Shown one piece after another: positions 1,863 through 64,000 of a DNA stretch of 64,000 nt. This DNA is from a virus (lineage: Duplodnaviria > Caudoviricetes). The stretch is taken from the IMG/VR virus record IMGVR_UViG_3300011008_000012, positions 32,001 through 96,000 of that record; one strand, written 5' to 3'. Each line of letters begins with the position of its first letter. The first letter of the stretch is position 1. A model generated the notes under the pieces. That model saw nothing but the letters and a program-made list of their open reading frames with translations. It did no database searches and was not told the DNA's origin. The position numbers and the translations under genes were made by a program.

Positions 1863-1947
1863 GCCGGCATGGTGAAATTGGCAAACACGTCGGCCTCAAG
1901 TACCGATGCCGCATGGCTTGAGAGTTCGAGTCTCTCTGCCGGCACCA
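1863..1947 (+). tRNA. tRNA-Leu(CAA)
   Basis: GCCGGCA/TGCCGGC acceptor stem, D-loop TGGCAAA, anticodon loop CTCAAGT, long variable arm, GAGAG-TTCGAGT-CTCTC T-arm, encoded CCA end. Confidence 0.93.
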
Positions 1948-2609: not shown

Positions 2610-3311
2610 ATGTCCAGAATCTTTGTGACCGGTGATACGCATGGAGATTACGACTGGGGAAAAATCAATACGGCTAGATGGCCTGAACAGAAGAAACTCA
2701 CGAAGGACGATTACCTGATCATTGCTGGCGACTGGGGAGGTATCTGGAGTATGCCTGTCGATGAAGGCGAAAGCGCATACTGTATTGAGGTCTACAACAG
2801 CAGGAATTTCACGACGCTGTTTGTCGATGGAAACCATGACCGTCATGATTACTACGCCACACTCCCGGTCGAGGAATGGAACGGCGGCAAAATACATAGG
2901 GTGTCCGATTCCATCTTCCATCTGATGCGCGGTCAGGTTTTCAATATCGACGGACGCACCATCTTTACAATGGGAGGCGCAGACTCCGTTGATAAACTGT
3001 GGCGTAAACCTGGCGTAAGCTGGTGGCCGGAAGAAATGCCAAACATCGCCGAGTACACAGAGGCGATGGAGAATCTGGAGAGAGCCGGTTTCAATGTTGA
3101 TTACGTCATTACACATTGCTGCGGGACACAGCTCCTCCATCGAATGTATACGCACCACTCGCAGCCAGATGCGCTCACAAATTTCTTCTGGGAGCTGGAG
3201 AAGGATCATAATCTTACGTTCAAGTCGTGGTTTTTCGGGCACCATCATCAGGATGCGATATTCGATGATGGGAAATACAGATGCCTCTATCAGGACATCG
3301 TGGAGATATAA
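2610..3311 (+). CDS. Calcineurin-like metallophosphoesterase
   Basis: GDTHG, GDWG, GNHD, ITH and GHHH motifs. Confidence 0.9.
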   Translation: MSRIFVTGDTHGDYDWGKINTARWPEQKKLTKDDYLIIAGDWGGIWSMPVDEGESAYCIEVYNSRNFTTLFVDGNHDRHDYYATLPVEEWNGGKIHRVSDSIFHLMRGQVFNIDGRTIFTMGGADSVDKLWRKPGVSWWPEEMPNIAEYTEAMENLERAGFNVDYVITHCCGTQLLHRMYTHHSQPDALTNFFWELEKDHNLTFKSWFFGHHHQDAIFDDGKYRCLYQDIVEI

Positions 3312-9817: not shown

Positions 9818-10804
9818 ATGTACAATGAAGAACAAAAGCGCCGCTATATCTCGGAACAGATAGAGAACTCAAAACGTGCGCGCACATGCGAACAGGTTTT
9901 TGAGGCGCTGGCTCCATATGAGGAAGAATGGGGAGCCGATTTTTCAACAAGGTCACCGGAAGAATTGCGTCCCATATTCGAGCAGATCGCAGGACTTCGC
10001 GAGCGAGTTCGGATGAATTACATGATCATTATCAGGAACTATATCAAGTGGCTGATCGGTCAAGGGGACAACACAGTTCAGAGGGGTATCTTGTCTATTG
10101 ATACGCTCGGCCTCGGCAATATCAGGAATATGACCGTAAAGAACCCGGTACATCTGCAACAATGTCTGAACGAAATTTTTGAGCCGGAAACAGAGCAGAT
10201 GGTAAGCAATATCCATCGCTGCTTCTACTGGCTTGCGTATGCCGGACTCAGAGAACAGGATATACTGAGCGTGAAATGCTCCGATGTTGATCTGGATCAC
10301 TTAACCGTCACATTTGGCGGCGAGACATATCGCATCTACGAAGAGGGACTCCTTGCTTTTAGAAATGCGGCAACACTGCCGACATTCGTTTATAAGAACA
10401 GTAATTACACGGCAGATAAGAAGATTATCACGCGCATCAGAGCTCAAGGCGATACGTTGATTCGCGGTTTTACATCAAAACCGACAAGCAAAGGTATAAG
10501 AGGCGAGCTTTCGCATCGCACCAAGGACGCGATAGACAGTGGGCGGACAAAAATGAAGCTCAGCCATCATCGCGTACAAATATCCGGGATTTTCTACCGT
10601 ATGTATGAACGGGAAGTTCGAGGATTACCGGTAGACTTCTCGGAAGACGCCGCGAGATTTATGGAACACAGCGTCGAGCGGCGAAAAGGCGAGTCGTATA
10701 AACTGGACAGCGGAAGAAACACGATTGAGGCAAAACAACGTCAGATCGAACGAGACTACATGCGGGATTATGAACGCTGGAAAGTAGCATGGGTGATCCT
10801 TTAA
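9818..10804 (+). CDS. Degenerate tyrosine-recombinase-fold protein, SPbeta MrpR/YopR-like repressor
   Basis: MYNEEQKRRYI start and LAYAGLR..DIL core, but RVQISG replaces HxLR and no H/Y catalytic box is visible. Confidence 0.65.
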   Translation: MYNEEQKRRYISEQIENSKRARTCEQVFEALAPYEEEWGADFSTRSPEELRPIFEQIAGLRERVRMNYMIIIRNYIKWLIGQGDNTVQRGILSIDTLGLGNIRNMTVKNPVHLQQCLNEIFEPETEQMVSNIHRCFYWLAYAGLREQDILSVKCSDVDLDHLTVTFGGETYRIYEEGLLAFRNAATLPTFVYKNSNYTADKKIITRIRAQGDTLIRGFTSKPTSKGIRGELSHRTKDAIDSGRTKMKLSHHRVQISGIFYRMYEREVRGLPVDFSEDAARFMEHSVERRKGESYKLDSGRNTIEAKQRQIERDYMRDYERWKVAWVIL

Positions 10805-10820
10805 TAACGAGTGAACGAAA

Positions 10821-10847
10821 CACCCGCTTCGGCGGGTGCTTTTCTTT
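10821..10847 (+). terminator. Rho-independent terminator
   Basis: CACCCGC-ttcg-GCGGGTG followed by a T-rich tail. Confidence 0.85.
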
Positions 10848-10972
10848 ACATATATCAAAACAATAAAATTATCTGCATCAAAAACGCAGAACGGAAAGGA
10901 AGGTGCTCCATGAAGAATGTAGCTGGTTAGCATGGCGATCAGATAACAAATTTCTTGTATTGGAGGAATTGA

Positions 10973-11650
10973 ATGGCAGAAACGCTGAACATCTATCAGA
11001 AATTGGCAAAGGTCCGCAAGGCCGTCGAGGTCGTGCAGAAGAATGCCAGCGGTTATGGGTACAAATACGTCACAGATGACGAGTTACTTGCTCGCATCAC
11101 GGGCGTTATGGATAAGCATGGGCTCTCGCTTATCCCAAGTATCGTGCCGAACACATTCACAGTAGAGCCTTATACATATACGAAGATCAAAAAGGGCGAA
11201 GAAGAGATCGTCAATGAGATCCTCGTCAACGCAGACATGGAATTTGTCTGGATCAATAACGACGCGCCGAATGAGGTGATTCGTGTGCCGTGGGCGCTTA
11301 CCGGTCAGCAGAGCGATGCGTCGCAGAGCTTTGGTTCCGGTCTGACGTATGCCTATCGCTACTTCCTTCTGAAATACTTCGGGGTCGCCACTCCGAACGA
11401 TGATCCTGACAACTGGCGAAACAAGCAGCGCGAGGCGGAAGCCGCGGAAGATCGTGCGCTTGCAGAGCAGATCGTCAATATCATCGATAAAGAATTCAAG
11501 GATTATATCTCGAACGGTGGTTCCACCGAAGAGATCCGCGACTTTGCAAGTAAGTATGTGAAGGGCGGAAATTACTTCAACATCAAAGAGTCTGCGGTAG
11601 CGGCAAAGATGCTTGAAGATTTCAAGAATACTTTTAAGAAGGAGGCGTGA
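10973..11650 (+). CDS. ERF-family ssDNA annealing protein
   Basis: GYGYKYV and SQSFGSGLTYAYRYFLLKYFGVATPNDDPD motifs. Confidence 0.85.
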   Translation: MAETLNIYQKLAKVRKAVEVVQKNASGYGYKYVTDDELLARITGVMDKHGLSLIPSIVPNTFTVEPYTYTKIKKGEEEIVNEILVNADMEFVWINNDAPNEVIRVPWALTGQQSDASQSFGSGLTYAYRYFLLKYFGVATPNDDPDNWRNKQREAEAAEDRALAEQIVNIIDKEFKDYISNGGSTEEIRDFASKYVKGGNYFNIKESAVAAKMLEDFKNTFKKEA

Positions 11651-11653
11651 GAG

Positions 11654-12037
11654 ATGGGTTTTCGTACTGGAGCCTACTGCAAAATCTGGGAAATCAAGCC
11701 GATCTCCAACTCGATGACGAAAATCCGTATTTCCATCAGCCGTAAGAAACGCGGCGAGGACGAATACGTCCAGGATTTCAGCGGATATGTAGCGTGCATC
11801 GGAACGGCGGCCGCCGATAAGGCGTCGCGTTTGAGCGTCGGAGATACGATCAAGCTCGGTGATGTGGATGTTTCCACTACATACGACAAGGAGAAGAAGG
11901 TCACCTATACTGACTTCAAGGTTTTTTCGTTTGATGTCAGTGATCGGGATGCGAAAGGCTCAAACAACGGATCTGCCGGTGGCGTAGATGATGGAGAGCC
12001 GGAAGCGTCTGGCTCTGATAGCCGTCTGCCGTTCTGA
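11654..12037 (+). CDS. ssb: Single-stranded DNA-binding protein
   Basis: OB-fold-sized, acidic tail ending LPF, adjacent to ERF. Confidence 0.75.
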   Translation: MGFRTGAYCKIWEIKPISNSMTKIRISISRKKRGEDEYVQDFSGYVACIGTAAADKASRLSVGDTIKLGDVDVSTTYDKEKKVTYTDFKVFSFDVSDRDAKGSNNGSAGGVDDGEPEASGSDSRLPF

Positions 12038-12048
12038 GGCGTCGTTAA

Positions 12049-12870
12049 ATGACGGCTATCGATTATAAGCCGCTCATTCAGGACATGGTATGGAGCTACT
12101 CAAGGCTGGAAGCGTTTGAGGATTGCCCATATAGATGGTTTCTGCATTATCTTCTGAACTTCCAAGACGAGGATAAGTTCTACGCGAGCTTCGGTTCGTT
12201 CATGCACCATTTGCTCGAACAGTTTTATACCGGCAAAAAAGATCGGTCTGAGCTTGTCATGGAGTTTATCGCGGATTTTCAGGAGAAGGTCGTTGGGAAA
12301 AGACCGTCAGAAAAAATCCTGTCCAAATACATTCAGAACGGAGTCAATTACCTACAGGCATTTGACCCGCTTCCGTTCAATGTGATCGATATTGAGAAAA
12401 GGGTCCGGTTTTCCATCCAAAGAGATGGGGAACCGGATATACAGATGATCGGTATTATTGATTATCTTGGAGAGAAGGACGACGAATTGTATATCGTCGA
12501 TCATAAATCCAGGAAATTGAGTCCGAGGAGCAATCGGGCAAAGCCGACACTGAAGGACAAAGAACTAGATAAGATGCTCAGGCAGCTCTATGTCTATTCG
12601 ATCGCCGTTGAACAGAATTACGGGAAATTGCCGAATTACTTATGCTTCAACTGCTTCCGGTCAAATGAGCTTATCGTTGAGCCATTCAAGCAGGAAGCAT
12701 ACGAGGAGGCGAAACAATGGGTAATTGACACGGTAAAAAAGATCGAGAACACAGCGGAGTTCCCTCCGAAGCAGGATCTATTCTCATGCTTTTGGATATG
12801 CGGCGTCAATCGTCATTGCAAATATGACATTGAAAGTATGAATGAGAGGAGGAATGTCCGTGGACTATGA
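12049..12870 (+). CDS. PD-(D/E)XK Cas4/RecB-like exonuclease
   Basis: WSYSRL..CPY, G...H, GIID, VDHKS, QLYVY and C-terminal C..IC.....C. Confidence 0.85.
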   Translation: MTAIDYKPLIQDMVWSYSRLEAFEDCPYRWFLHYLLNFQDEDKFYASFGSFMHHLLEQFYTGKKDRSELVMEFIADFQEKVVGKRPSEKILSKYIQNGVNYLQAFDPLPFNVIDIEKRVRFSIQRDGEPDIQMIGIIDYLGEKDDELYIVDHKSRKLSPRSNRAKPTLKDKELDKMLRQLYVYSIAVEQNYGKLPNYLCFNCFRSNELIVEPFKQEAYEEAKQWVIDTVKKIENTAEFPPKQDLFSCFWICGVNRHCKYDIESMNERRNVRGL

Positions 12871-14195
12871 GAATTGATGATATCAACAGCATAGACAGCG
12901 AGAGCGGTATCATTGCGTCTCTCATACATAACCCGGAGCTGTCGTTCTACTCTGAGCAGCTCCTGCCTGAACACTTTACGCGCAAAGACAACAGGTATGT
13001 TTATACTGCGATCTGCAATCTTGCGAAGCGCGGAATATCAACGGTAGATCCTTACAACATCATCGAGGTTTTGAACACCGAGGAATCCACACGGCAATTT
13101 GCAAGCGAACTATCCATTGATATGCTGCAGGAGCTCATAAGTATGAGCGATGTGCTCGCCAGAAGGACTCCGGAAGAGTATAAAATCCTGGTTTCAAACG
13201 TGATTGATGCGGCATTTCGCAGGGAAATGTACCAAAAACTGTCCGATTGCCAGCGTTTGTGTTGTGATCGGAACGCAGAAAACATCCAGGAACAGGTGTA
13301 CGCGACGATCGACGAGATCCTCACAAGTTATTCGACCGTCGATGACATTCTTCCATATTCAGATGTTGTGGATCAGTGCTGGAAAGAAATCCAGTCAAGA
13401 CAGGGGACAGGGTTTGCCGGTATCCCTTTCAAATTCCCAACGCTGAATGAGTATGTAACGATCGAAGACGGAGAACTTGTGATATTCGCGGCGGAAGCGA
13501 AGCAGGGAAAGTCAATGCTCCTCCTGAATTGTGCGGTCGATCTTCTAAAACAGGACAAAGCAGTTTTGTATTTAGACAGCGAATTGAGCGATATGCTTTT
13601 CACAAAAAGGATTTTGGCGCATCTGTCAGGCGTGGAGTATAAGCGTTTGGAAATCGGAGCGTATGACGTAAATGAGGCGGCAAAGATCGACACGGCGCGT
13701 GAGTGGCTGAAAACACGGAAATTTACGCATTTGTATATTCCGATGTTCGACCAGCAGACGATCTACACAACCGTCAAAAAGGTTGCGCATACGCAAGGGA
13801 TCGACGTTCTGATCGTTGACTATTTCAAGGGGCAGGGTACAACCGATGCGTTCGCAAGCTATGCAGAACTAGGAGCATTTACAGACTGTATTAAGAACAA
13901 AATCTGTGGCGACATGAAAATTGCTGGAATTGGTGCTGCGCAAGCGACATCAACCGGTAAATTGGCCGATTCCGTCAAGATTGTCAGGAATGCAAGTACA
14001 ATTTGCATGATAACGGACAAGACAGAAGAGGAAATCGAAGCGGACGGACCGGAATGTGGCAACAAAAAGCTCCGTGTTGTATTCAATCGAAACGGGATGC
14101 AGCATACGTCGTCTGAGTATATAGATATGTTGTTCGACGGGAATCACATCTTATACAAAGAGGCAAAACAGCATATCCCTGTCAGCCCATATTAA
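12867..14195 (+). CDS. DnaB-like replicative helicase
   Basis: AAEAKQGKS Walker A, LDSE, LIVDY, AAQ and NRNG motifs. Confidence 0.88.
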   Translation: MRIDDINSIDSESGIIASLIHNPELSFYSEQLLPEHFTRKDNRYVYTAICNLAKRGISTVDPYNIIEVLNTEESTRQFASELSIDMLQELISMSDVLARRTPEEYKILVSNVIDAAFRREMYQKLSDCQRLCCDRNAENIQEQVYATIDEILTSYSTVDDILPYSDVVDQCWKEIQSRQGTGFAGIPFKFPTLNEYVTIEDGELVIFAAEAKQGKSMLLLNCAVDLLKQDKAVLYLDSELSDMLFTKRILAHLSGVEYKRLEIGAYDVNEAAKIDTAREWLKTRKFTHLYIPMFDQQTIYTTVKKVAHTQGIDVLIVDYFKGQGTTDAFASYAELGAFTDCIKNKICGDMKIAGIGAAQATSTGKLADSVKIVRNASTICMITDKTEEEIEADGPECGNKKLRVVFNRNGMQHTSSEYIDMLFDGNHILYKEAKQHIPVSPY

Positions 14196-19819: not shown

Positions 19820-22800
19820 TTGGCAGGAAACTACATACCATATCACGTTCACAGCGATTACAGCCTTCTCGATAGTTGCACGAAGTTTGAAGATTACGTT
19901 GATCTTGCAGTTCGTGACGGCGTTAAGGCGATTGCGTCTACAGAGCATGGGAAACCAATGGGTTGGGTTTCCAAAAAGTTGTACTGTGACAAGCAGGGTA
20001 TCAAGTTTATCCACGGCGTTGAGATTTACCTGACAGAAAACCTCGACGAAAAAGTCAGAGATAACTACCACACAGTTCTGCTTGCGAGGAATCTGGATGG
20101 TGTACGCGAGCTGAACAGGCTGGTATCAATGTCGTGCGATAAACGACACTTCTACTATACAAACCGAATTAGTTTTGATGAGTTTCTCGGTATATCCGAT
20201 AATATCTTGTCAACGAGCGCGTGTCTGGCGTCACCGTTGAACAGGTTGTCCGAAAGTCATCCGTACTATATGGCATTGGCACAGAAGTACGACTTCCTGG
20301 AGGTGCAAGCCCATAACCATCCAGATCAGATCGCGTTTAATAAAAGGTTGTTTCAGCTATCTTTGGATCTTGGCACTCCATTGATCGCAGGAACAGATAC
20401 ACACAATTCTTCTCCGTATAAAGCGGAGTGCAGGTCGATCCTTCTGAAAGCAAAGCACAAATCATTTGGCGATGAAGATGCGTTCGACCTTACATATAAA
20501 ACATACGACGAGCTGGTCGAAATGTTCCGGCGTCAGAACGCGCTTCCAGAGGATGTGTATCTGGAGGCTATTACCAACACGAACATGCTTGACGAACTCG
20601 TTGAAAATTTTGAACTTGATAAAAGCATTAAATACCCGATCCTGTACGGATCACGAGAAGCCGACTCTGCGAAGTTTACAGAAACAGTAGAACGTATGTT
20701 TGCTGAAAAACTTGAGAGCGGCGTTATTCCACCGGAGCAAAAGGATGCGTTCCGTGCCGCGATCGATGAAGAAATGCGGGTTTTCCAAAAGCTCAAAATG
20801 GATGGCTTTATGCTGTCTATGTCCGAGCTTATATGCTGGTGCAAGAACCATGGCATGGCGATCGGTACTGCCCGCGGCTCCGTCGGCGGTTCCAGAGTGG
20901 CGTATGTCACAGACATCATTGACCTTAACCCGGAAACATGGCAGACGGTTTTCTCGCGTTTCTGCAACGAAGACAGAACAGAAATAGGCGATATTGATAT
21001 CGACTGCATTGAAGAAGACCGTCCGGAGATATTCCGCCATATTATATCAAGATTTGGCGCGGACAAGACAGGCCGCGTCGCTTCGTTCGGCACGATACAG
21101 ACCAAGGGTGTCATCGACGAGGTTTGCCGTGCAAAGATGAACGACTGGAATAAGGAACACGGATACAAGGAAGGCGAAAAGGTTGATGATAATCCGTATG
21201 GGTACGATATCGTTAACAAAATTAAGGCAGAATTGACTCCAATCGACAACTTATCCAAGAAAGAAAAGAAGCCGATCACAAGCTATCCTGAATACGATGT
21301 GCTTGCGAAAAAGTACCCACAGGTTTTCTACTACTTCGATGGTTTGTTCAACACAAAGGTTTCCCAGTCCGTTCATCCGGCCGGCATGGTCATCAGTCCT
21401 ATCACGCTTATAGATAACTATGGGATGTTTGATAAGGACGGAGAGAACTGTCTAATGATGGATATGGAAGAGGCTCATGAGGTCGGAGCGGCGAAATACG
21501 ACTTCCTTGTTTTGAAGACAGTGCAGGTTATACGGGATGCTTGCGAATATCTCGGAGTGAACTATCCGCATACATACGAAATCGATTGGAACGATCAAAA
21601 TGTGTGGGCGGATATGCAGAAAAACCTGACTGCGATCTTCCAGTTTGAGGGAGCATTTGCCGCAGACTGTTTTAAGAAGTTCAAAACGTCGAGTATCTTC
21701 GATATGTCGCTCGTCACGGCTTGCATACGTCCGTCCGGTGCGTCATACAGAGATCAGCTTCTTGCACGAAAACCGCATAAGAATCCGTCCGAAATGATCG
21801 ACGAACTCCTAAAGGATAACCTTGGTTATCTGGTGTATCAGGAGGACACGATCAAATTCCTGCAGCAGATTTGCGGTTTGACTGGCAGCGAGGCGGATAA
21901 CGTGCGTCGTGCGATAGGACGAAAACAGCATGACAGACTGGCAGCGGCGCTTCCGTCGATCCTTGAAGGTTATTGCGGGAAATCTCCAAAACCTCGTGAC
22001 GAGGCGGAGAGCGAAGCGAAAGAGTTCTTGCAGATTATAGAAGACAGTGCGAATTACCAATTTGGGTTAATGATTAGCCCATTCTTTGTGAACCCTATTA
22101 CTCAGGGGTGTGTATCTTACGAAGCTGAGTAACCGCAGGAAATGGCGGCTAAAAGATATGCTAACGGGGGAACCCTACTGTATTGAGGGCAATCCTGTGC
22201 TAAGCAGATAGGAGTGAAGATGTGGAAATCAATTAGTGGCTATGAAGGATACTACGAGGTGAGCGACGATGGTAGGGTGAGGAGCCTCACTCGCACAATC
22301 TTAGACTCACGCGGGGTAATACGAACACTTCACGGCGGTGAAATGAAGGTTACAGAATCGATCGGTAAAGACCGGTCCGGAGACGGTTATTATGTAGTAA
22401 ACCTAAGACGTGAGCATACTTCGAACGTGTGCCCGGTTCATAGGTTGGTTGCTGAAGTATTTATACCAAACAGCGATAATCTTCCGACTGTGAACCACAT
22501 AGACGGAGACAAGTATAATAATCATGTTTCAAATCTGGAGTGGGCTTCATACGCAGACAATAATGTACATGCGCTAAAGCACCAGTTAAGACAACCTAGA
22601 GGTAATCGTATTGCCCAGTATTCTTTGGACGGTTCCTATATTTCCACATTTCAGTCTACATGCGAAGCCGCGAGGCAAACAGGTGTATCGCGCGGAATGA
22701 TTTCACACTGCTTGAATGGCAGATGTGGTTCAGCAGGCGGCTTTGTATGGAAAAAACTATCTGAAAGTGCAACGACTATCCCGCAAGGGAGTACGCAGGA

Positions 22801-23827
22801 AGATGAGTTACCTGCGGAAGCGCAAAGACCACAATAAGTGGAAGATATAGTCTACGCCACCAGTAATGGTGGAATGCGTGATAATCATTCAATCGCATAT
22901 TGCCTTCTAGGGTATCTGTGTGGATATTATCGCTACTATCATCCTTTGGAATTTGTCACGTCGTTTTTGAACAATGCGGCAAACGATGAGGATATCAGAA
23001 ACGGTACTGCATACGCAACAAAGGTCGGGATCAAAGTGACGATGCCAAAATGGGGCGTATCCAAAGGTGAGTACTACTTCGACCGGGACAAAAACATCAT
23101 CGCAAAGGGTGTCACATCGATCAAGTACATGAGCGAACAGCTCGCAGATGAAATGTTCATCCTCTCGAAGAATCATTATGAACGATTCATTGATTTGGTC
23201 GCCGATCTTAAGTCAAAGACAAGCATAAACTCGCGCCAACTTGAGATCCTCGTTAAGCTGGATTTCTTTTCCGACTTCGGCAATCAAAGAGAATTGCTTC
23301 GCATCATTGATGTGTTCAGTCAGTTGTTAAAGGACGGAGAGGTCAAACAGATCAAGAAGGAATCTGTCGATGGAACACCGTTCGGTGAGATTATCGCACA
23401 ATACTCAAACGGGAAAACGAAGAATGGCGCTGAGTCCAAAAGCTACGTCATTCAGGATATCCACGCGATCATGCGCGGAGTTGAAGATGCAATCATGGCG
23501 GCTCGTCTGGAAGATTTGCCAGACATTGTGAAGATACAAAACTTCCACGACGCTATGGGCTATGTCGGATACACATCCGGCAAGGAAGAGGACAGAAGAA
23601 AGCTCTATGTTCTCGATGTTTTCCCTCTCGCAAGAAAAAGTGACGGAAAGAAGTTTGGGTATTCCGTCATCACAAAATCGATCGGAAGCGGCGTTGAAAG
23701 CCGCTTCACGGTTTTTAATCGGGTATTCGATAAGGAACCGATACATAAGGGCGACGTGATCTACTGCAAAGGATATGAACGGAATAGACAATACTTTACA
23801 CTCACTTTTTATGACAAAGTCTACTAA
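19820..23827 (+). CDS. dnaE: DNA polymerase III alpha, spliced (join 19820-22067 + 22881-23827, ~1064 aa)
   Basis: PHP HVHSDYSLLD, RGSVGGS, DIDID, HPAG and YQE motifs; splicing restores NYQFG-Y-NHSIAY. Confidence 0.92.
22068..22880 (+). ncRNA. Group I intron in dnaE (813 nt)
   Basis: P1 TGGGT/GCCCA with U.G; P10 AATGATT/AATCATT; P TAACGGGGGAACCC, Q GGCAATCCTGTGCTAAG, R GTGCAACGACTATC, S GAAGATATAGTCT; terminal G. Confidence 0.9.
22214..22837 (+). CDS. Intron-encoded NUMOD4-HNH-NUMOD1 homing endonuclease
   Basis: WKSISGYEGYYEVSDDGRVRS, VHRLVA, VNHIDGDKYNNHVSNLEW and C-terminal HTH. Confidence 0.9.
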   Translation: MKMWKSISGYEGYYEVSDDGRVRSLTRTILDSRGVIRTLHGGEMKVTESIGKDRSGDGYYVVNLRREHTSNVCPVHRLVAEVFIPNSDNLPTVNHIDGDKYNNHVSNLEWASYADNNVHALKHQLRQPRGNRIAQYSLDGSYISTFQSTCEAARQTGVSRGMISHCLNGRCGSAGGFVWKKLSESATTIPQGSTQEDELPAEAQRPQ

Positions 23828-55090: not shown

Positions 55091-58000
55091 CTATATTTTT
55101 ATGCTATACTTATTAAGAGAGCGAGAATCCACCATCTTACCAAGACTCATGGACGCGATAAGCTTTTCAAACTTCGAGTCGCTTTGCATCTGACGAAGCA
55201 TGTCGTTATAGTCCTGAACATGGTCGATCTCGATTGTAACGTTAATGTCTCCAATACTGGAGCTGCGATTGGCGATGTTCGGGCGATGAATACCCAGAGG
55301 CATATCCCCACGCAGCGAACCGATGAGCCCACTGGATAAAGCGGACAACACAGATGCAGCCGAAGCACTACCAGAGATAGCGCCCTTACCGCGCAAGAGA
55401 TCCAACAGGGCGGAGAAGTTTTTCGTGTCCTCTGCATCAAGGATACCCTCAGGCTTATCGGGCGAACCGTCCACCCAGGCAAGGCCGGTGTAATCTGCCA
55501 TACCACCTGTCTTGTAACCTTTGAACTTCTTCCGCATTTTGCTGTAAGAATAATTGGCCGCTTTAAGGCTGTTCTTGGTCGCATACGCGGCCACAGCTTT
55601 TGCGCCCTTACCGACGATAGCCTGGATACCATTATCCGTACCGAAAACCTCTTCCAGAAGTTTCTTCCTGGTAGCACCAGAACCCCAGCCTTGACCACCG
55701 TTCCAGATCGCATAGGCGACGCCGTATTTGATCTTTTCAGTCAACTTGGGCGTGGTCGTTTTGTTTGTCTTATCGGTCTGATTCTTATCTTTGGTTGTAT
55801 CTTTGCTTGAAGTCGTGGAGGTGGAAGTGGTTGACGGAGCCGACTCGGTGGACGTCAGCTGCCCGATGGTAGCAGCCGCCTCGTTGTTGCTAGCCGTAAC
55901 CATCTCCTGAACATTGGCACTAATATCGTTGATAGCCTTTTCTGTCGTGGTTTCCTCGCCTGAATTGTATTCGGTTACTGCCAGCTTGTTAAGATTCTCT
56001 GCGGCAGTCTTCCAAATAGCGCCAAGGGTACCATCCGCTGTGGATATCTTGTAGCCATCTTCTTCAGCGGCCGACTTCAGCGTGTTCCAGATACCACCGG
56101 AATTCTCGTTGACGGCGGTGATCACGTCTCTGATCAGTGCGTCTGTTTCATCCAACCGTTTGGTGAGAGTCGCCTCATACTCCGTATACAGATCGTCAAG
56201 CAGCTGTTTTTGATCCTTGATATACTGCTCGTACTGCGTTTCCTGAAGTTTCTCCTGCGCCTCTGCAAGACTTGTATTGAGCTTTTGCAGACGAGCCCGG
56301 TTCTCCTCTGACGTATCACCGGAGTAAGCGGAGAGCTGCTTCTGGATTTGTGCTACGTTCTTCGTTTGCTCGGCAATCTTTTTCTGATAATCATATAGGG
56401 ACTTGGCAGAATCTAGACTTTCCTTATAGGTGTCTATCAGGTCTTTCAGCGAGGAGAGTTCGAGATTGATACCCTCTTCCACAAGGGAGACGATGGCGTC
56501 TTTCTCTCCCTCAGCCGCGAGAATCGACTTCTGCTGTAAGTCGATCAGCTCTTCGCGGCGCTCAATCAGGTCCGTATTATTCGGGTCTTTTGCTATCTGC
56601 TTTGTGAGTTTTGCAATCTGCGTGGCGTAATCGTCCGCCTGCCGCATATACACGTCGTAGTTTGTGCTGTGCAAGCCCATAGTAGCCATACCAGCGTCTG
56701 TGAGCTGTCCATTTTCTGTAAACAGCTTGGAGTGGCTGAGCAGGTCAACCATGAAGCTAGCCTCAGAGGAAATGCGGGAGATACGCTCTTCCAGATAGTC
56801 GAAGTGGCTCCAGTCGTTCTCGCGAGCTTGCTTGTTGAACTCCGCCATATTTGTCTCGGCTTGCTGAATTGACTCGGCAACGGCATTGATATTCTGTTGC
56901 ATAGCGTACCAAGCTTCAGAGTACTTCTTGATCTCACCGCTTGCCACCGCCGCGTCTCTCGCCGCCGTCAGCTGCTGGAACTCTTGGTTGAGCACGTTGA
57001 GATTCTTTTTCTCCTGCTTCGCCATCTTCGTATAGTATTTCGACGAGACGAGTCTGCCGCGTGCCTCCGCATTGTCGATAGCGCCGTCAAGAGTGTTGGT
57101 CACATGCTCAAAAAGACTAAGACGATCCTCAAAATTGGTTTGAATATTATTGAAGTTATCCTGATACAATGAGCCAAGCTTCTCGTGCAGATCGACAGCG
57201 GCATCCGAGCACTCTTTGCTCTTCTCATACCACTGCTGATACTCCTGAATAAGTTCTGCGGTTGCATCATCGTACTCATTGATATCAATTGTTCCTTCAC
57301 GAACACGCTTCTTCAGGTCGTCTGATAGCCCAACAGACTCCGCCTGCTTCATATAACGAGCGGCGGCCTTCTCGTTCAGGGCGAGCATGTTGTTGACTTC
57401 GCCGATTTCTTTGTTTGTGTTCTTCAGTCGCGTAGAGAGAGTTTGGAAGGAACTACTCGCCTTTGTCGCCAGCTTTGAGATCTTCTTATCCAACCGATCG
57501 ATAGCGATCTCGATCCAGTCAATGACCTCCTTGGCGTCGTCGGCCGCCTTGGTGCTGCTATTGCCGCCGCTGGTAGTGGCGGCCCCGCTGTTGCCGGAAT
57601 AACTTGATGTGTAGCTGCCGAGATTGGCGCTGGAGGTCAAGGCGGGCAGAGTCGCCTGGCTTGTAGTGGGCGTTGATCTGCCGCCGGAGTCCGTCATCAG
57701 CGTATTGACGGTGCCAATCGGGTATGCTCGTCCATGTCCGGCATGACCCGTCCGGAGAAGACCTTCCGTTTGCGCGTGGTTGAAAATAATATCGCCCTTG
57801 TCAATGCCGATGAACTCAGCTCCATTATTACCTACTGTGCGCCATTCGCCGCTTGAAGCATCGACGTATAGTTCTCTGCCTTTTTCGCCTACCAGAACAC
57901 GGCCGCCTTGTTTTGCCCCCATCGTGCCGGAGGCCATGGCGTTGCCATTGACTTGCGCTTCACGATGTACTGTGTTAATATAGGTTGTGACCTGCCTGTT

Positions 58001-61000
58001 TTCGAGAGCATTTAAGCGGCTATTTAATACGTCGAGCTGCCCCATGCCGGAAACATTAACATCGACGTCTACTTTCTTCCCTTCGGTCTCTTCGATGTTT
58101 TGTTGCAGTGCGTCGGTGGCTTCGTTGGCCTCTTCTGTACTGACTTGCATATCAGTCTGGAGATCATCCGGAACAACTTCTGCCCAATTAATGTCAGCGA
58201 CCTGACCATACTCCTTGATCATCGCCGCAAGCTCTTCACGGCTCATATGCATAACCTGGGCGAAGGCATCAAATGCGTCGTTGTCGGCTATCGACAGGGT
58301 CACCTCATCGCCAACACGGTCAATTTCTACGCCGACCTCAGAAAGCTCATCCTTGAGGGCTACGGCGCTATCGATCCAATTCGATAACCCCTTTGTGCCA
58401 TACCGGTCATCTGTCGCTCCGTCATACCATGCCTCACGTTCGGCGATCAGTGCCTCCAGCTGTCTGGCGGCACTCTCCAAGCCTTGTGAGAAGTCTATGA
58501 ACTGCGTAAGCCCCATCTTCTCAGCGATATCCCACGTTTTGGCTTCGGAGCCGATAATCCCCTTACCGAGGAGTTCTTCCATTTCCTCAACTGCTTCGGC
58601 GTAGGTGATGTATTCGTTATTGGTATCGGCGCTCAGAGATTTCTTTAGCTCGTCGGCGGCCTCTTCTACGCCACGCATAGAGTCGGCAAGCATACCATAG
58701 TGTTCTGCAAGCTCGTCAACCGGGTCGACGGGTAGGTTACGGGCGGCATTGATGACACTCTTCAACGCGGTCGTCTGCTCGTCGGTCAGGTCGGCTGTTT
58801 TAGCAAAATCTTCCAAAGACCTGATGAAGTCATCCGGCGATTCACGCAATAGCTTCTTTAAGCCTTCTTCAAGATTTCCGAAGCCTTCTGCTTCCGCGTC
58901 AATATATTCCAGAAGCTCAGGGAACTGCTGAACTAGCTCAAAGACACCCTCCGGCGTTATGTCGCCATTTCGCAGATCAACCAAAGCGGTAGTCAATGTA
59001 TCGATGTCCGAGGTAAGGGTGCCAAGCCCTTCAAGTGTTTCTGAGAGCCTAAGGTTGTCATACTCATGCCGAATGGCTGCGACGCTTTCTGCGACGCCCA
59101 TATTGGCAAAATCGAGGTTTGATGCTGCCTCTGCGACGAGATCGAGTTCGTCGTCGCCTATCTCTCTGATCCACGACAAAAGCTCGACTCCGAACTGCTC
59201 CTTTAAGGTCGCAAGCGCTTCAGACCCGTATCTGCCAGCTGTTTTGGCCGCGCCATTAGAACCGGCAAATATGTCCCAAATATCGTCCAGCGCGTCCGTG
59301 AGCTCTTCGGATAACCCAACGAATTTATTTAGTTCTTTTTCCGCAGGCTTGGCCTCGTCGGCAAGAGCCTTAAACCCGTCCGCGATTTGTCCTATAGTCC
59401 ATCCGGCAAAACTAAAGCCGTTTCCAGAGAAAAGATCGTAAAGCTGTTTAACGTCTTCGGGAGACATATCGCTGACAAACTCGTCCCATGCGGTGCGCCA
59501 CTCGTCAAGCGCCTTTGCCGTCTGACGCTCGGTCATCCCCTCGGTATCGATACCGCCGAGGACGCTTTCCCACATCTGCCGTATAGCCTCATCGACGTTG
59601 ATTATACCGATGTTGCTATTGATCGTATTGGCAACAGCTTCCGCAAAGTCCTCGCCGGTCTCCATGCCGGCTTCAACAGCGGCCAGCTTCAGAACACTTT
59701 CGGGAAATAGTTCAGATACATCTTCGGCGCTGATACCGTTGTTCCCGGTTGCCTTCTCTTTGAGCGCATCGATAAACGGCTGATTCATTGACCCAGATAT
59801 GAAGTCGTCGACAGCCTTCTGGGCATCACGAGCAACCTCTTCTTCGGTCTTGGTGTAATCGATAATCTCTTTAATCTGGTCAAGCCAATCTGCGTTGGCC
59901 TCTGGAGCCAAAGAGAGAGTTGAGTAGATGCTGAGCAGCGTATCAAGATCCTCAGCAAGAAGCTCGCGATACTCATCGGCACCATCGTTGACCATCTCCT
60001 GCTCGAACTGGATCTTTTCCAACAGATTCATATTCCGCAGGACCGACGTTCCTTCGCCTCGTGCAAGGCTATAATCTATCCCAACATCAACAACTTGAGT
60101 TTTTGACAATAGTTTTCGCGCGTCGTCTATTGCCTCTTGTTGTTCAAGAGCTGCTATCTGTCGTTTTAGCTCTAACTGTGATTCAAGGTCTGAGTTCGCC
60201 GTTTCAAGCCGACTAAGTTCCTCTTGCTCAACGAGTGTGAGTCCGCCCTTGGCATTCAACTCGTCGATTCGCGTCTGTGTGGTGTTTAACTCAGAATTTA
60301 GACTCTCTATATCAGACTGTGCACTGTCATAAGCAGCCCTGGATTTCTCCGCTGCTTTCTTGGCCTCATTAAAGGATACTATAAGCGCATCAACAATTTT
60401 TACAACGCCTACTATCAGGGATGCTGCGGCGACAAAGCCAAATATTCCCGTCGATAGCGCACCCATTCCTTCTGCTGCGAGGTTAGCCGCTGTGGCAAGA
60501 TCTTTAATGGATGTAACTCCAGTTGCAAGCCCACTTGTTGTAAATAGAGCGCTTAATGTTTGCTTGAGTATCAAATAATTTGTCGATATATATTTATGGA
60601 TACATATCAATTTGGAGGGTGATTATATGGACCAAATTACAGACCAACTTCTTAAAATCAAGTCGCTTTGGGATAATGGCGTGTTATCTGAAAGTGAATT
60701 CAACGAGTTGAAACAAAGGATTATTTCAGAAGATTACCATTCGACAGACAATGAATCTGAAACAAAGGAAAAATTGTATACAGTTAGCCTTGTAGCGTAT
60801 ACAAGGGAACAAAAAATTCCGACAATTCAAACAATCCGCGAACTAACCGGATTGGGATTGGCCGATGCAAAAGATCTGATCGAAACCTTGCCGCACGTTA
60901 TTCGCGATAATGTACCAATGTCTGAATGTATTGATATCAAAAACAGTTTTGCGACCAATAAAGCAGTGGTTGTTATAGAAGAATCCCGGGTCACGTCAGA

Positions 61001-64000
61001 ATCACATCCAACGGGAGCATATTTCGGCAATACAGTTCTTAGTGAAAATCCATCTTGCCCCTACTGCCACTCACCCGACGTAAAGAAAATCACCATGACT
61101 AAGAAGCTCGCTAAAGGTTGGGTGTTCGGTCTGGCCGCTGCGTCAACGCTCACGAAGGAATGGCATTGTAATAACTGTAAAAGCGATTTTTAATTCTTAT
61201 TATAGGAGATACTACGAATCATGAATAATAAGAAATGTATTATTGTTACTTCGCGGACCGGTTCTAAAACTCTTTGTGGGCATTGTTCTCATTGTCAGGA
61301 ATTCGTTGAGCTAACGGACATTGATAACATACCGAAAGAGCTCTTTGTATAAGTCCCGGGATATCGGCCTTTGGGTCGATAGTATGGTCGTCGTCATAAT
61401 AGAACCTAAACGCCTTGTGAACTCTATCGCAGTAAAATTGCATCTGAGTATACCCGTAATAATCGCCGCCTCCCCAATGGGTGATTTCCGGCGTAGCGAA
61501 TTTTTCATAACAATTCATAAAACCATCCTTTCATTCGTATACCCGCTCAGGTATTAAACGTGAATTATTGAACGTTAGTATACCGGAACGGGTATAATAT
61601 GTATTATATTGTTTTTATCCCATCCATAAAACCAGTCAAGGGATTGTGACCGCATTGTTATTCAAACTCTATACTGCTTCTGAAATTGGACTTTCATGCC
61701 GGTCTCTCACCGGCGAGCATAGAACCGATACAGTCTAACAAAGAAAGCTATATCGGCAATTCCGACTGTCTCTCACACTATTTGACACATAATATGTATG
61801 GTGGTATTATGACCTTGCGCATTTGACTCTCTGTCGGCTTAGTACGTTTGACAACGGGACGGAACCGCCGTCCAGAGAGGAGTGATTAGCGTGAAGAAGG
61901 TCATCAAGACCACGGTTAAGGTTGAAACGAAAGTGAAAACCAAAGCCGTCTCAAGGGCGCAAGTCCGAGTTCGACGCGGTTGATCCGTGCGCCGGGACGT
62001 GTATTGGCGCGTCCCGTTATTTTTTATGTGTAAATAGTGAACCTCCTTACAGTCTGTGAGCCTTCCCGTTCATCACAAATTCCAACGTGATGCAGTCCCC
62101 AGACGAAAAAGATTTGTATGTCTTGAAATAAAACTACGTCTGCTGTATTATTATTAACAGGCGCAACGAAATCCGGCGAAGAGAGATGTTGACGGCTTGA
62201 CTCTCTAAGTCAGGAAAGTAGGTGATATAATGGCGCAGATCAAAGTGAAAACCGAGATCAAGGTGAAAATCCGCACCACGGTGCGGGTTGCCACCCGCTG
62301 CCGTTGATCGGCGCTTAGGGAGTCAGTCACCGCTGGCTCCCGTCTTTATTTCATATACAAAATTTTTCGATAGGGGAGAGGGGCTTGGTTGCGTGATTGC
62401 CCATTGTATACGACCAGTAGCGTTATTGTTTAGCCTAGGCCAACCATCCACTTCTTTCCGCCTTTCGGCTCCTCTCGCGCTTGTCCGTTAGGGCTACGCT
62501 GTGGCAAGATGGTATTAGGGGTTCCCCGCAGTTTGAAGGTTTACGCAACGATGGGTTCACACCCATCGTGGGCAAATTCATTTGAACTACCAAAATTGTG
62601 AATCAAAACGCCGATACCCAACCCGGCAATTGCTGTACCGAGTGGACCGAGCGCGGATGTAATATGTCCAATAGCTCCGGCAATGGGTTCTAGGAGTTCC
62701 AATACGTTGGTGCCAATGTCAACGATGCTATTTACAAAGCCGGAATCGATGGCTGTCCGGCTCAGCTCCTGGAGCGCGGCCTTGAATGTGTTGATATGCG
62801 CCGTCATGCTGTCCAGGAAGACGTCATACGCGCCCTCAAGTGCGCCGGCGCTGTCGGCCATAGCTTCCATGGCTCCGGTCGCTTCACCGAACTGCCCCAT
62901 GAGGCTGCTGAACACGTCTTGCTGTCGCGTACCGGCCAAAGCAGTGGTAATGGCGGCTTTAACATCTGTGCTGAGTGTGCTCCACTTGTCCGCCAGATCA
63001 CTTAAAACCTCGAACGGATTACGAAGTGCACCAGTTGCCTCCTGTAACTGAACTCCTCCGCTTGTAAGCGCGTCGATCAGTTCTTGGTACTTCGCCTCGT
63101 TCCATACCTCGCCAGTTTCTTCAATCTCTGTTTTGACATTTCTGAGTCTGGCAATGATCGTTCGCAGACCGGTGGAAGATTTGGAAATATTCTGGACCGT
63201 TGTATTTGCGGCTGTCAGCATGGCTATCGACTGATCGATAGTCATTCCGGATTGAGCCATCATCGAGGAGGCATTGTTCATGCCCTCCGCAATCTGGGAT
63301 ACTGAAATGGGGAAGTTGTTACCAACTTTCACCATTTTATCCATGATAGACTCAATGTCTTCAACGCCCTTCCCATAAGCCTTGACGATAGCGGTTACAG
63401 CGTCAGATGCAGCCGACGGATCAATGTCGCCGACGTTTTGCAGCATAGCAGTAAATTTTGCCAGGTCATGGGATTCTTCCAGACTATAGCCAAGTCTTGA
63501 GTAAACCGTCGCCATGTTGACCAGATCGGTTATGGAGGCGCTCATATCCTTTGCCGTCTGAGCCATCGTGCTGCCAAAGCGGCTCATCGTCTCATTGTCC
63601 GCACTAGTTACGATCTGAAGCTGTGTATATGCGTCGTTCAGCTCGATGGCCGTACTGACCATCTCTTTCATTTGCGCGATCGTAGATTGTATGATACGGA
63701 ACGTGCTGAACGTCATGGCGACATATTGCGTCAGGCCAGCCTTCAGATTTCCAAAGAAAGCGGCAAGGCTCGATCCGGCGTTGTTTACGTTACCAGATAT
63801 GTTGGTCACCTCGCTCCGTAGATGGGCGAGTTTAGCGCGGGCCTCATCCGCGGGCATTCCTTTAAGGTCTCCGGCAAGCCGTTCAAGGGCGGCTATGAGA
63901 TTATTAACTTGCGCAACAGTTGACGGATCGGCGGCGCCTTTGCCGAGAGCAATCTTGTCTTGCAGTCCATGCAGCGTATTTAACATGGTGCTGACCTGAT
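55091..64000 (-). CDS. Tape measure protein, spliced (join <64000-62589 + 60583-55091; >2300 aa; 5' end outside window)
   Basis: TP901-type TMP core in 62589-63986, long coiled coils, GYKTGG..GLAWVDG...PE C-terminus; splice gives in-frame IHNFG|TNYLIL. Confidence 0.88.
60627..61193 (+). CDS. SHOCT + ribosomal L7/L12 C-terminal-like + zinc-ribbon protein (intron cargo, antisense)
   Basis: LLKIKSLWDNGVLSESEFNELKQRI; KIPTIQTIRELTGLGLADAKDLIE; CPYC...CNNC. Confidence 0.75.
   Translation: MDQITDQLLKIKSLWDNGVLSESEFNELKQRIISEDYHSTDNESETKEKLYTVSLVAYTREQKIPTIQTIRELTGLGLADAKDLIETLPHVIRDNVPMSECIDIKNSFATNKAVVVIEESRVTSESHPTGAYFGNTVLSENPSCPYCHSPDVKKITMTKKLAKGWVFGLAAASTLTKEWHCNNCKSDF
61264..61518 (-). CDS. 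Small hypothetical protein (intron cargo)
   Basis: AAAGGATGG RBS; 84 aa with CYQC. Confidence 0.55.
   Translation of the reverse strand: MNCYEKFATPEITHWGGGDYYGYTQMQFYCDRVHKAFRFYYDDDHTIDPKADIPGLIQRALSVCYQCPLAQRIPDNENNAHKEF
61782..61810 (+). promoter_or_regulatory. Sigma-A promoter of minigene 1
   Basis: TTGACA-17 nt-TATTAT. Confidence 0.7.
61891..61983 (+). CDS. 30-aa cationic peptide MKKVIKTTVKVETKVKTKAVSRAQVRVRRG
   Basis: GAGGAG RBS, GTG start, own promoter and terminator; paralog at 62230. Confidence 0.6.
   Translation: MKKVIKTTVKVETKVKTKAVSRAQVRVRRG
61993..62025 (+). terminator. Terminator of minigene 1
   Basis: CGGGACGTG-tattgg-CGCGTCCCG followed by TTATTTTTT. Confidence 0.75.
62123..62151 (+). 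promoter_or_regulatory. Sigma-A promoter of minigene 2
   Basis: TTGAAA-17 nt-TATTAT. Confidence 0.6.
62230..62307 (+). CDS. 25-aa cationic peptide MAQIKVKTEIKVKIRTTVRVATRCR
   Basis: AGGTGA RBS, ATG start, own promoter and terminator; shares KVKT, TTV and VRV with peptide 1. Confidence 0.6.
   Translation: MAQIKVKTEIKVKIRTTVRVATRCR
62318..62351 (+). terminator. Terminator of minigene 2
   Basis: GGGAGTCAG-tcaccg-CTGGCTCCC followed by GTCTTTATTT. Confidence 0.7.

Follow-up and report, generated by a model that had tools for sequence, protein, structure and literature searches.

A predicted group I intron with a remote 3′ splice site and accessory cargo genes in the tape measure gene of a large tailed phage

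The tape measure protein (TMP) gene of a virus of the Caudoviricetes (IMG/VR record IMGVR_UViG_3300011008_000012) is called as two open reading frames (ORFs) with a gene-bearing stretch between them. This raises the question whether one protein or two are encoded, and what the intervening DNA is. We analyzed the locus in a stretch of 64,000 nucleotides (the window), which comprises bases 32001-96000 of this complete 119,578-bp record with direct terminal repeats. The TMP gene lies on the minus strand and its interruption extends from A62588 to G60584 (62588..60584, 2,005 nt). An original prediction, made from the sequence alone, had described the interruption as an endonuclease-less group I intron that acts as a vehicle for cargo genes. 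According to our analysis 62588..60584 is probably a splicing-competent intron that uses a far 3′ splice site. We propose that it belongs to an IA-like family of phage group I introns, of which the intron in the virion RNA polymerase gene of SPN3US is also a member.

The two parts of the TMP gene are the following.

62589..64000, minus strand: TMP exon 1, cut by the window end; 655 amino acids up to the junction ...LIHNFG
55091..60583, minus strand: TMP exon 2, 1,830 amino acids; bases 60582-60572 are the exon strand of helix P10

The N-terminal ORF as called has 670 amino acids and a stop at 62541. The C-terminal frame does not open before 60622 and extends to 55091. The start of exon 1 had been placed at 63986 and has to be moved: the gene starts outside the window, at the window-equivalent position 64553, behind an AGGAGG Shine-Dalgarno (SD) sequence (AGGAGGTGATGTA-ATG). 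Because exon 1 begins beyond the window, the joined product is counted as 2,485 amino acids. Exon 1 ends with ...CAC AAT TTT GGT (...CACAATTTTGGT) at 62589 and exon 2 begins with ACA AAT TAT (ACAAATTATTTG) at 60583. Removal of 62588-60584 joined the two ORFs in frame, just as predicted: each exon length is divisible by three, no stop codon interrupts the joined frame, and the predicted junction peptide is LIHNFG-TNYLILK (...GVLIHNFGTNYLILK). In BLASTP the joined protein matched the best single-ORF TMPs (P0002, P0001 and P0005) in one continuous alignment that runs across the junction. When the separate halves were placed on P0001, their spacing was 87 amino acids in P0001 vs 88 here. More than 300 database TMP relatives are single ORFs of about 2,000-2,400 amino acids. 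Exon 1 carries the PhageMin_Tail domain (PF10145, 1.9e-28, Pfam) and shows 65% identity to the single-ORF TMPs P0001 and P0002. The TMP of the host phage is a distant relative (~27% identity) of the TMPs of SPbeta-like Bacillus phages (127-134 kb); a search of viral contigs with the TMP N part found no relative.

The intron family was recognized by a blastn match of ~78% identity over ~92 nt, from the P5 extension to the P4′ region, to SPN3US-type jumbo phages. In these phages the match falls in an unannotated gap inside a split RNA polymerase gene, and the gap scored 51.9 bits with the Rfam group I model RF00028. A motif search with the P5 extension retrieved further phage introns, several of them RF00028-positive. 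From ten related phage introns, the window intron excluded, a covariance model of the P3(5′)-P4-P5-P4′ domain was built (model R1). In the 64-kb window R1 gave a single match over the full model length at 62387-62548 on the minus strand (81.6 bits, E 1.9e-17). Covariation was evaluated over 14 R1 matches (12 introns and two further ones in L015). Here 94% of the cells were paired, and 20 of the 29 pairs had changed on both sides, a value reached by none of 500 shuffles. At one P4 pair the window intron has G-C, whereas the other 13 sequences have U-A. A group I P3-P4-P5-P6 domain with the P/Q pairing is thus supported by the R1 match and by covariation, and sequence comparison assigns this domain to the family.

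The minus strand of a 118.8-kb viral contig (L005, 8700-9040) also holds a compact group I intron in which P, Q, R and S are clearly recognizable; its R1 score was 149 bits. RF00028 did not report it at E<=1, and blastn of L005 against the TMP locus found nothing; L005 represents a different gene with a related intron. Among bacterial genomes, none of the 80 loci listed for the P5-extension pattern matched R1.

The core elements were arranged along the minus strand from 5′ to 3′ as follows (MFE, minimum free energy).

62571..62591, minus strand: P1 and internal guide; exon GGU and intron AG (62591-62587) pair with UUGCC (62575-62571)
62549..62568, minus strand: P2 hairpin, CGAUGGGU-GUGA-ACCCAUCG, 8 bp, GNRA loop
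62387..62548, minus strand: P3 5′ strand (62541-62535), P4, P5 and P4′; region of the R1 match
62472-62451, minus strand: P5 extension, GGAGCCGAAAGGCGGAAAGAAG
62398-62388, minus strand: P4′ (Q), inside the R1 match
62061..62386, minus strand: P6 with the L6 insert; base CCC...GGG, extension 62377-62355 paired with 62119-62096
62092-62071, minus strand: small hairpin in the P6 region (MFE fold)
62040..62060, minus strand: R or P7 5′ strand (CUCACAGACUGUA, 62060-62048), then P3′ (GGAGGUU, 62046-62040)
61776..62039, minus strand: P8 with the L8 insert; closing stem 62039-62024 with 61792-61776, 16 bp, one bulge (MFE fold)
61698..61774, minus strand: S or P7 3′ strand (GAGAGACAGUCGG, 61774-61762), P9 (61756-61725) and P9a (61714-61698)
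60584..61697, minus strand: intron 3′ tail, with the terminal G60584 as its last base

The core spans 62588-61698 (~900 nt) and is followed by the 1.1-kb 3′ tail. It appears complete, but spread out by inserts in the P6 and P8 loops. All of the elements P/Q, R/S, P3, P7 and P8 named in the original prediction were found, P/Q by the R1 model and R, S and the other helices by inspection; for P7, P3′, P8 and P9 inspection was combined with the weight-matrix rank, and P3, P7 and P8 all pair. Among 127,976 positions scored with the family weight matrices, the R site (62062-62050) ranked 33rd and the S site (61775-61763) 20th, the latter being the top position on this strand inside the intron. Both lie on the correct strand, in the correct order and within the top 0.03% of positions. 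R is near-identical to that of the same-site intron of L007 (GACTGTAAGGTAGTT), and S and L007 have the 10-mer AGAGACAGTC in common. P7 is formed by C-[A]-GACUG and CAGUC-G. P3 consists of 7 bp between AACCUUC (62541-62535, just before J3/4-P4) and GGAGGUU (62046-62040); compared with L007 (AACUAUC/GGUAGUU) two pairs differ on both sides and the 7 bp are kept. In independent MFE folds the P6 and P8 inserts were closed by 16-20-bp stems. The fold of the L6 sub-sequence showed the insert closed by the P6 extension stems, and the inverted repeats I14 and I18 agree with this element. An alignment of the trimmed mini-intron with L007 and L044 by MAFFT aligned the variable parts badly; the helices were therefore compared by hand. 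Two S-like sequences (AGAGAGUCAA, ~62200 and ~61825) and an R-like sequence (GGUGACUGACU, ~62325) were rejected as core elements, since they are neither ordered nor paired as a core would require; instead they form part of the cassettes described below.

The intron shows the splice-site features of group I introns, namely a U.G pair at the 5′ site, a terminal G and a P10 with the 3′ exon. At the 5′ splice site (62589|62588) U62589 pairs as U.G with the G of the GCC guide. The short P1 (GGU/GCC) of the original prediction was confirmed as GGU|AG paired with UUGCC, and the same GGU/GCC occurs in two of the records compared below, G001 and G002. A P10 had been announced as a 12/13-nt pairing. The helix is indeed present, but has the form of 11 bp with one bulged G between 62584-62573 (CAAAU[G]AAUUUG) and 60582-60572. 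Six of its pairs directly adjoin the GCC guide. Of the 3,105 positions used as controls, just 0.5% attained its energy of -7.6 kcal/mol. We also considered that the last 22 intron nt might be tethered to the J7/9-P9 region in the manner of P9.0, but in all four genomes such a duplex was no better than 50-85% of the controls, and the idea was rejected. A guide-adjacent 5-6-mer complementary to the distant start of exon 2 was found in three lineages with differing sequences (AAUUUG/CAAAUU here, AAUAU/AUAUU in G002 and G003, UAAAC/GUUUG in G001); the splice sites of G001-G003 were chosen partly by this pairing.

From this arrangement a splicing pathway may be proposed. The late TMP transcript would fold into P1-P9, exogenous guanosine would cut after U62589, and G60584, 1.1 kb past P9, would be brought in mainly by the unusually long P10. 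Exon ligation would then yield one tape measure protein of 2,485 amino acids. The ribozyme could tolerate ~1.6 kb of foreign DNA because the inserts sit in the stem-closed terminal loops of P6 and P8 and the remainder in the 3′ tail, a position also used in the T4 nrdD intron and in IStrons, which are chimeras of a group I intron and an IS605/IS607 element. The nrdD (sunY) intron of T4 likewise has its core 5′ of the intron ORF, and its remote 3′ junction is recognised through P9.0/P10-type pairings. Its ORF, however, is a sense-strand homing endonuclease gene, and it has no antisense cassettes.

Three other viral records contain the same intron type at the homologous TMP position: G001 (L007), G002 (L044) and G003 (L055). 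In all of them exon 1 ends with ...GGT in the hydrophobic stretch after PhageMin_Tail, the guide is GCC, and a long stretch separates the compact core from the point where the TMP frame continues. Scored against the whole length of RF00028, the L007 core reached 44.7 bits. No cultured phage gave a blastn match to the G002 core. The gene-bearing stretch is ~2.1 kb long in G001, 3.2 kb in G002 and 1.5 kb in G003, and its ORFs differ in each.

G001 tail: a lipoprotein-type signal ORF and a membrane-type ORF, both antisense, and a sense ORF of ~190 amino acids that has no family match
G002 tail: a DUF4325 protein, a 321-amino-acid ORF and an antisense CoiA-like/zinc-ribbon ORF
G003 tail: an antisense NYN-domain ORF

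None of these tail ORFs matched the TnpA or TnpB families. The proviruses G002 and G003 share 99% identity across exon 1 with the first 386 intron nt and 96% identity from 302 nt ahead of exon 2 onward, but their inner tails (2.9 kb vs 1.1 kb) are wholly different. This apparent swap of inner tails is the best support for cargo exchange. Together with the different tails at one site in three records, it lends comparative support to the cargo-vehicle claim of the original prediction. Furthermore, 75 of the 119 other TMP N-part clusters listed stop 0-52 residues past the projected junction, often after K-N-x-G, the intron at this site having been verified in G001-G003 only. P0124, the closest of those listed, has an intron-encoded tail in common with the window (SSIEFVHYGCELIAA vs SSNEFAHDGCEPIVA here).

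Further interruptions of TMP genes were observed in these and other phages, and several introns per TMP gene occur in G002, G003 and L209. The TMP genes of G002 and G003 have an additional upstream interruption (L070 2425-3391 vs L069 ~2965-3200). In G003 it contains a 967-nt insert with a 310-amino-acid ORF (zf-FCS, weak DUF559) that is missing from G002 and looks like presence or absence of an intron ORF. In the ~90-kb viral contigs L192-L211, a common phage lineage, a 563-amino-acid TMP N part ends with ...SIKNVG. A variable stretch of 1.4-5 kb (8689 to 10027-13615), usually with a 347-amino-acid ORF, precedes the large C-part frame. L192, the sequenced example, gave no RF00028 match at the junction, and in L209 a further group I intron (47 bits) lies at a later position, 13465-13796.

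The interruption in the window contains the following candidate genes; the plus strand is antisense to the TMP gene.

60627..61193, plus strand: ORF188, 188 amino acids, antisense, GGAGGG SD
61221..61352, plus strand: ORF43, 43 amino acids, Cys-rich, AGGAGA site, no family match
61264..61518, minus strand (sense): ORF84, 84 amino acids, no family match, poor predicted model
62123..62341, plus strand: cassette A in L6, antisense; promoter-like site 62123-62151, AGGTGA SD, terminator 62318-62341
62230-62307, plus strand: micro-ORF of cassette A, 25 amino acids (MAQIKVKTEIKVKIRTTVRVATRCR)
61782..62016, plus strand: cassette B in L8, antisense; promoter 61782-61810 (TTGACA-17-TATTAT, 11/12), AGGAG SD, terminator 61993-62016 followed by a T run
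61891-61983, plus strand: micro-ORF of cassette B, 30 amino acids

Searches of Pfam, PHROGs and Atlas with the intron ORFs gave no match to a nuclease or transposase family, and no intron-encoded homing endonuclease of the HNH, GIY-YIG, LAGLIDADG, His-Cys or PD-(D/E)xK type was found in these databases. The corresponding statement of the original prediction on HNH, GIY-YIG, LAGLIDADG and transposase ORFs therefore holds. ORF188 combines a SHOCT-like N terminus, an L7/L12 C-terminal-like domain (PF00542, 2.2e-13) and a C-terminal zinc ribbon. It has almost no close relatives, the search having found only a single, partial one, and the domain pair recurs in Atlas clusters from Bacillota and phages. 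ORF43 and ORF84 overlap on opposite strands, so that only one of them is likely to be real. The intron had been described as holding four unrelated ORFs. It does carry accessory genes, but cassettes A and B are paralogous and share short repeats and a conserved stop-terminator end; both micro-ORFs are rich in Lys, Val and Thr. A blastn search of the 119.6-kb genome for further copies of the cassettes or the tail found none. The -35 box of cassette B lies within the 3′ strand of P8, and its terminator tail within the 5′ strand.

Most intron ORFs with expression signals are located on the strand opposite to the TMP gene. With signals of its own, the cargo could thus be expressed independently of TMP transcription or splicing; its expression and role are putative. 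Exactly opposite the two micro-ORFs, hydrophobic ORFs of 41 (62205-62330) and 34 amino acids (61839-61943) were noticed on the minus strand, the SD of the former being buried in the terminator hairpin. Since these hydrophobic ORFs face the micro-ORFs, the cassettes might alternatively be read as a type I toxin with an antisense RNA.

Several observations weigh against a splicing-competent intron. RF00028, named as a check in the original prediction, gave no match at its gathering threshold (50 bits). In E-value mode it scored 12.4 bits (E 9.5) and covered model positions 60-138 only, so that this check failed and the core is shown only by the family-specific model and manual anatomy. A second covariance model of the 3′ half (R2), whose consensus structure retained only P7, gave chance-level best matches in 60400-62700, none of which spanned R...S over the 270-nt P8 insert. 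R2 thus failed to bridge the window intron, and the remaining core rests on anatomy. R reads GCUCACAGAC, while GUUCAACGAC is present in ten of ten relatives; the Tetrahymena intron has the form UCACAGACU. P1 is short, with only 3 bp to the exon, and the P10 helices of G001, G002 and G003 were each at chance level when tested singly. Finally, the junction sits in a weakly conserved hydrophobic stretch of the TMP; consequently, protein homology places the interruption nearby and does not fix the exact splice site. A decayed intron in a split gene, with a ribozyme that is inactive or performs the first step only and with two TMP polypeptides or a defective genome as the result, would agree with the subthreshold RF00028 score, the deviating R, the short P1, and a core stretched over ~900 nt with its 3′ splice site 1.1 kb further. 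The many database TMP N parts that stop here also fit genuinely split genes. We nevertheless regard such decay as unlikely. No start codon with an SD-like 5-mer ahead was found in the first 80 codons of exon 2, whereas exon 1 and ORF188 have strong SDs; compensatory changes keep the core helices, and the inserts are confined to stem-closed loops. In addition, the more than 300 relatives have one-piece TMPs, and the 119.6-kb genome record is complete and bears terminal repeats.

The layout of the element also recalls the IStrons (CdISt1 of Clostridioides difficile and CboIStron), in which transposon genes follow a 5′ group I core and the 3′ splice site is placed at the distal end of the element; that their splicing restores the host ORF has been demonstrated experimentally (PMC10690162). 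The core at 62588-61698 lies at the 5′ end, followed by the long gene-bearing tail 61697-60584 and a remote 3′ site, and the same holds for G001-G003. The element could therefore be an IStron remnant that lost tnpA and tnpB and kept or gained other genes, and ORF188 shows a faint match to an IS1595-type zinc ribbon (E 0.23). However, the IStron cargo is the transposon itself (tnpA, tnpB and omega RNA) on the sense strand, with TTGAT abutting the left end in the C. difficile type (PMC10690162). In the present element most of the cargo runs antisense and brings promoters and terminators of its own, and the two cassettes are housed in P6 and P8 rather than in the tail. Exon 1 ends with TTTGGT (...CACAATTTTGGT) and not with the TTGAT of the C. 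difficile-type (IS605-family) IStron. No ORF of the intron matched an IS605/IS607 transposase family, no TnpA or TnpB match was obtained for the tail ORFs here or in G001-G003, and no omega-RNA-like Rfam match was found at E<=10. An origin as an IStron remnant is thus quite improbable. Least credible is a moron island or other insertion with a chance likeness to group I introns. Antisense genes with their own promoters and terminators and the lack of any match at the curated Rfam threshold would suit it, but the R1 match (E 1.9e-17) comes close to refuting it. Moreover, all core elements as placed here follow the canonical order, the base at -1 is U and the last one of the intron G, and homologous compact introns occupy the same TMP site. 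A splicing-competent group I intron with a far 3′ site hence remains the probable explanation, catalysis and the use of that site being predicted from the anatomy.

The original prediction had treated introns in structural genes as exceptional, a premise that proved dated. In prophages of the B. cereus group, TMP group I introns at three sites (TMP-IVS1/2/3), classed as IA1/IA2 and at least one lacking a complete homing endonuclease gene, were described in 2008 (Tourasse and Kolsto, PMC2504315). They share the host gene with the intron described here, and several introns per gene are possible, as in G002, G003 and L209. In the accessible description no non-endonuclease cargo, antisense genes or kilobase-distant splice site are reported for them. 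The nearest sequence relative in named phages is the virion RNA polymerase beta intron of the SPN3US type (Salmonella phage SaP7, Proteus phage 7), which has the motif GGAGNCGAAAGNCGGAAA in common with the window intron. It sits in a transcription gene, has an 866-nt ORF just upstream of its RF00028 match, and differs by a P7.1/P7.2-type insert that the window intron lacks. Thus, TMP introns and a 5′ core with a long gene-bearing tail are already known; new are the kind of cargo, its arrangement and its recurrence at one TMP site.

Two further features of the window were noted. On the plus strand, a DnaE-like DNA polymerase III alpha gene is interrupted by another group I intron, of the classical kind.

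19820-23827, plus strand: DnaE-like gene, ORFs 19820-22132 and 22838-23827
22214-22837, plus strand: HNH/NUMOD (I-HmuI-like) intron ORF
22766-22778 and 22841-22853, plus strand: R-like and S-like sequences; RF00028 16.1 bits, 3′ end only
1863-1944, plus strand: 82-nt tRNA gene with a long variable arm (RF00005, 51.2 bits)

If the intron splices, the phage can house ~1.6 kb of unrelated genes in a structural gene that is essential and pays no coding cost for them, and the near-identical proviruses G002 and G003 would show cargo exchange. The self-splicing RNA may then act as a neutral landing pad, and tail assembly would depend on splicing, as the original prediction suggested. For annotation it follows that RF00028 at threshold misses such introns and that a family-specific P3-P6 model finds them. 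More tentatively, group I introns at the K-N-x-G hot spot of long TMP genes might provide large Bacillota phages with general, exchangeable docking sites for accessory genes. Their cargo would turn over with neither an endonuclease nor a transposase in the element. Antisense micro-cassettes would have their -35 box and terminator tail built into P6 and P8, and cassette transcription and splicing of the essential tail gene could influence each other. Splicing of the intron in the window would in itself widen the idea of the IStron, an intron that serves a transposon as a stealth coat, to ordinary accessory genes, and would provide a concrete reason why so many long metagenomic TMP genes are called as two ORFs.

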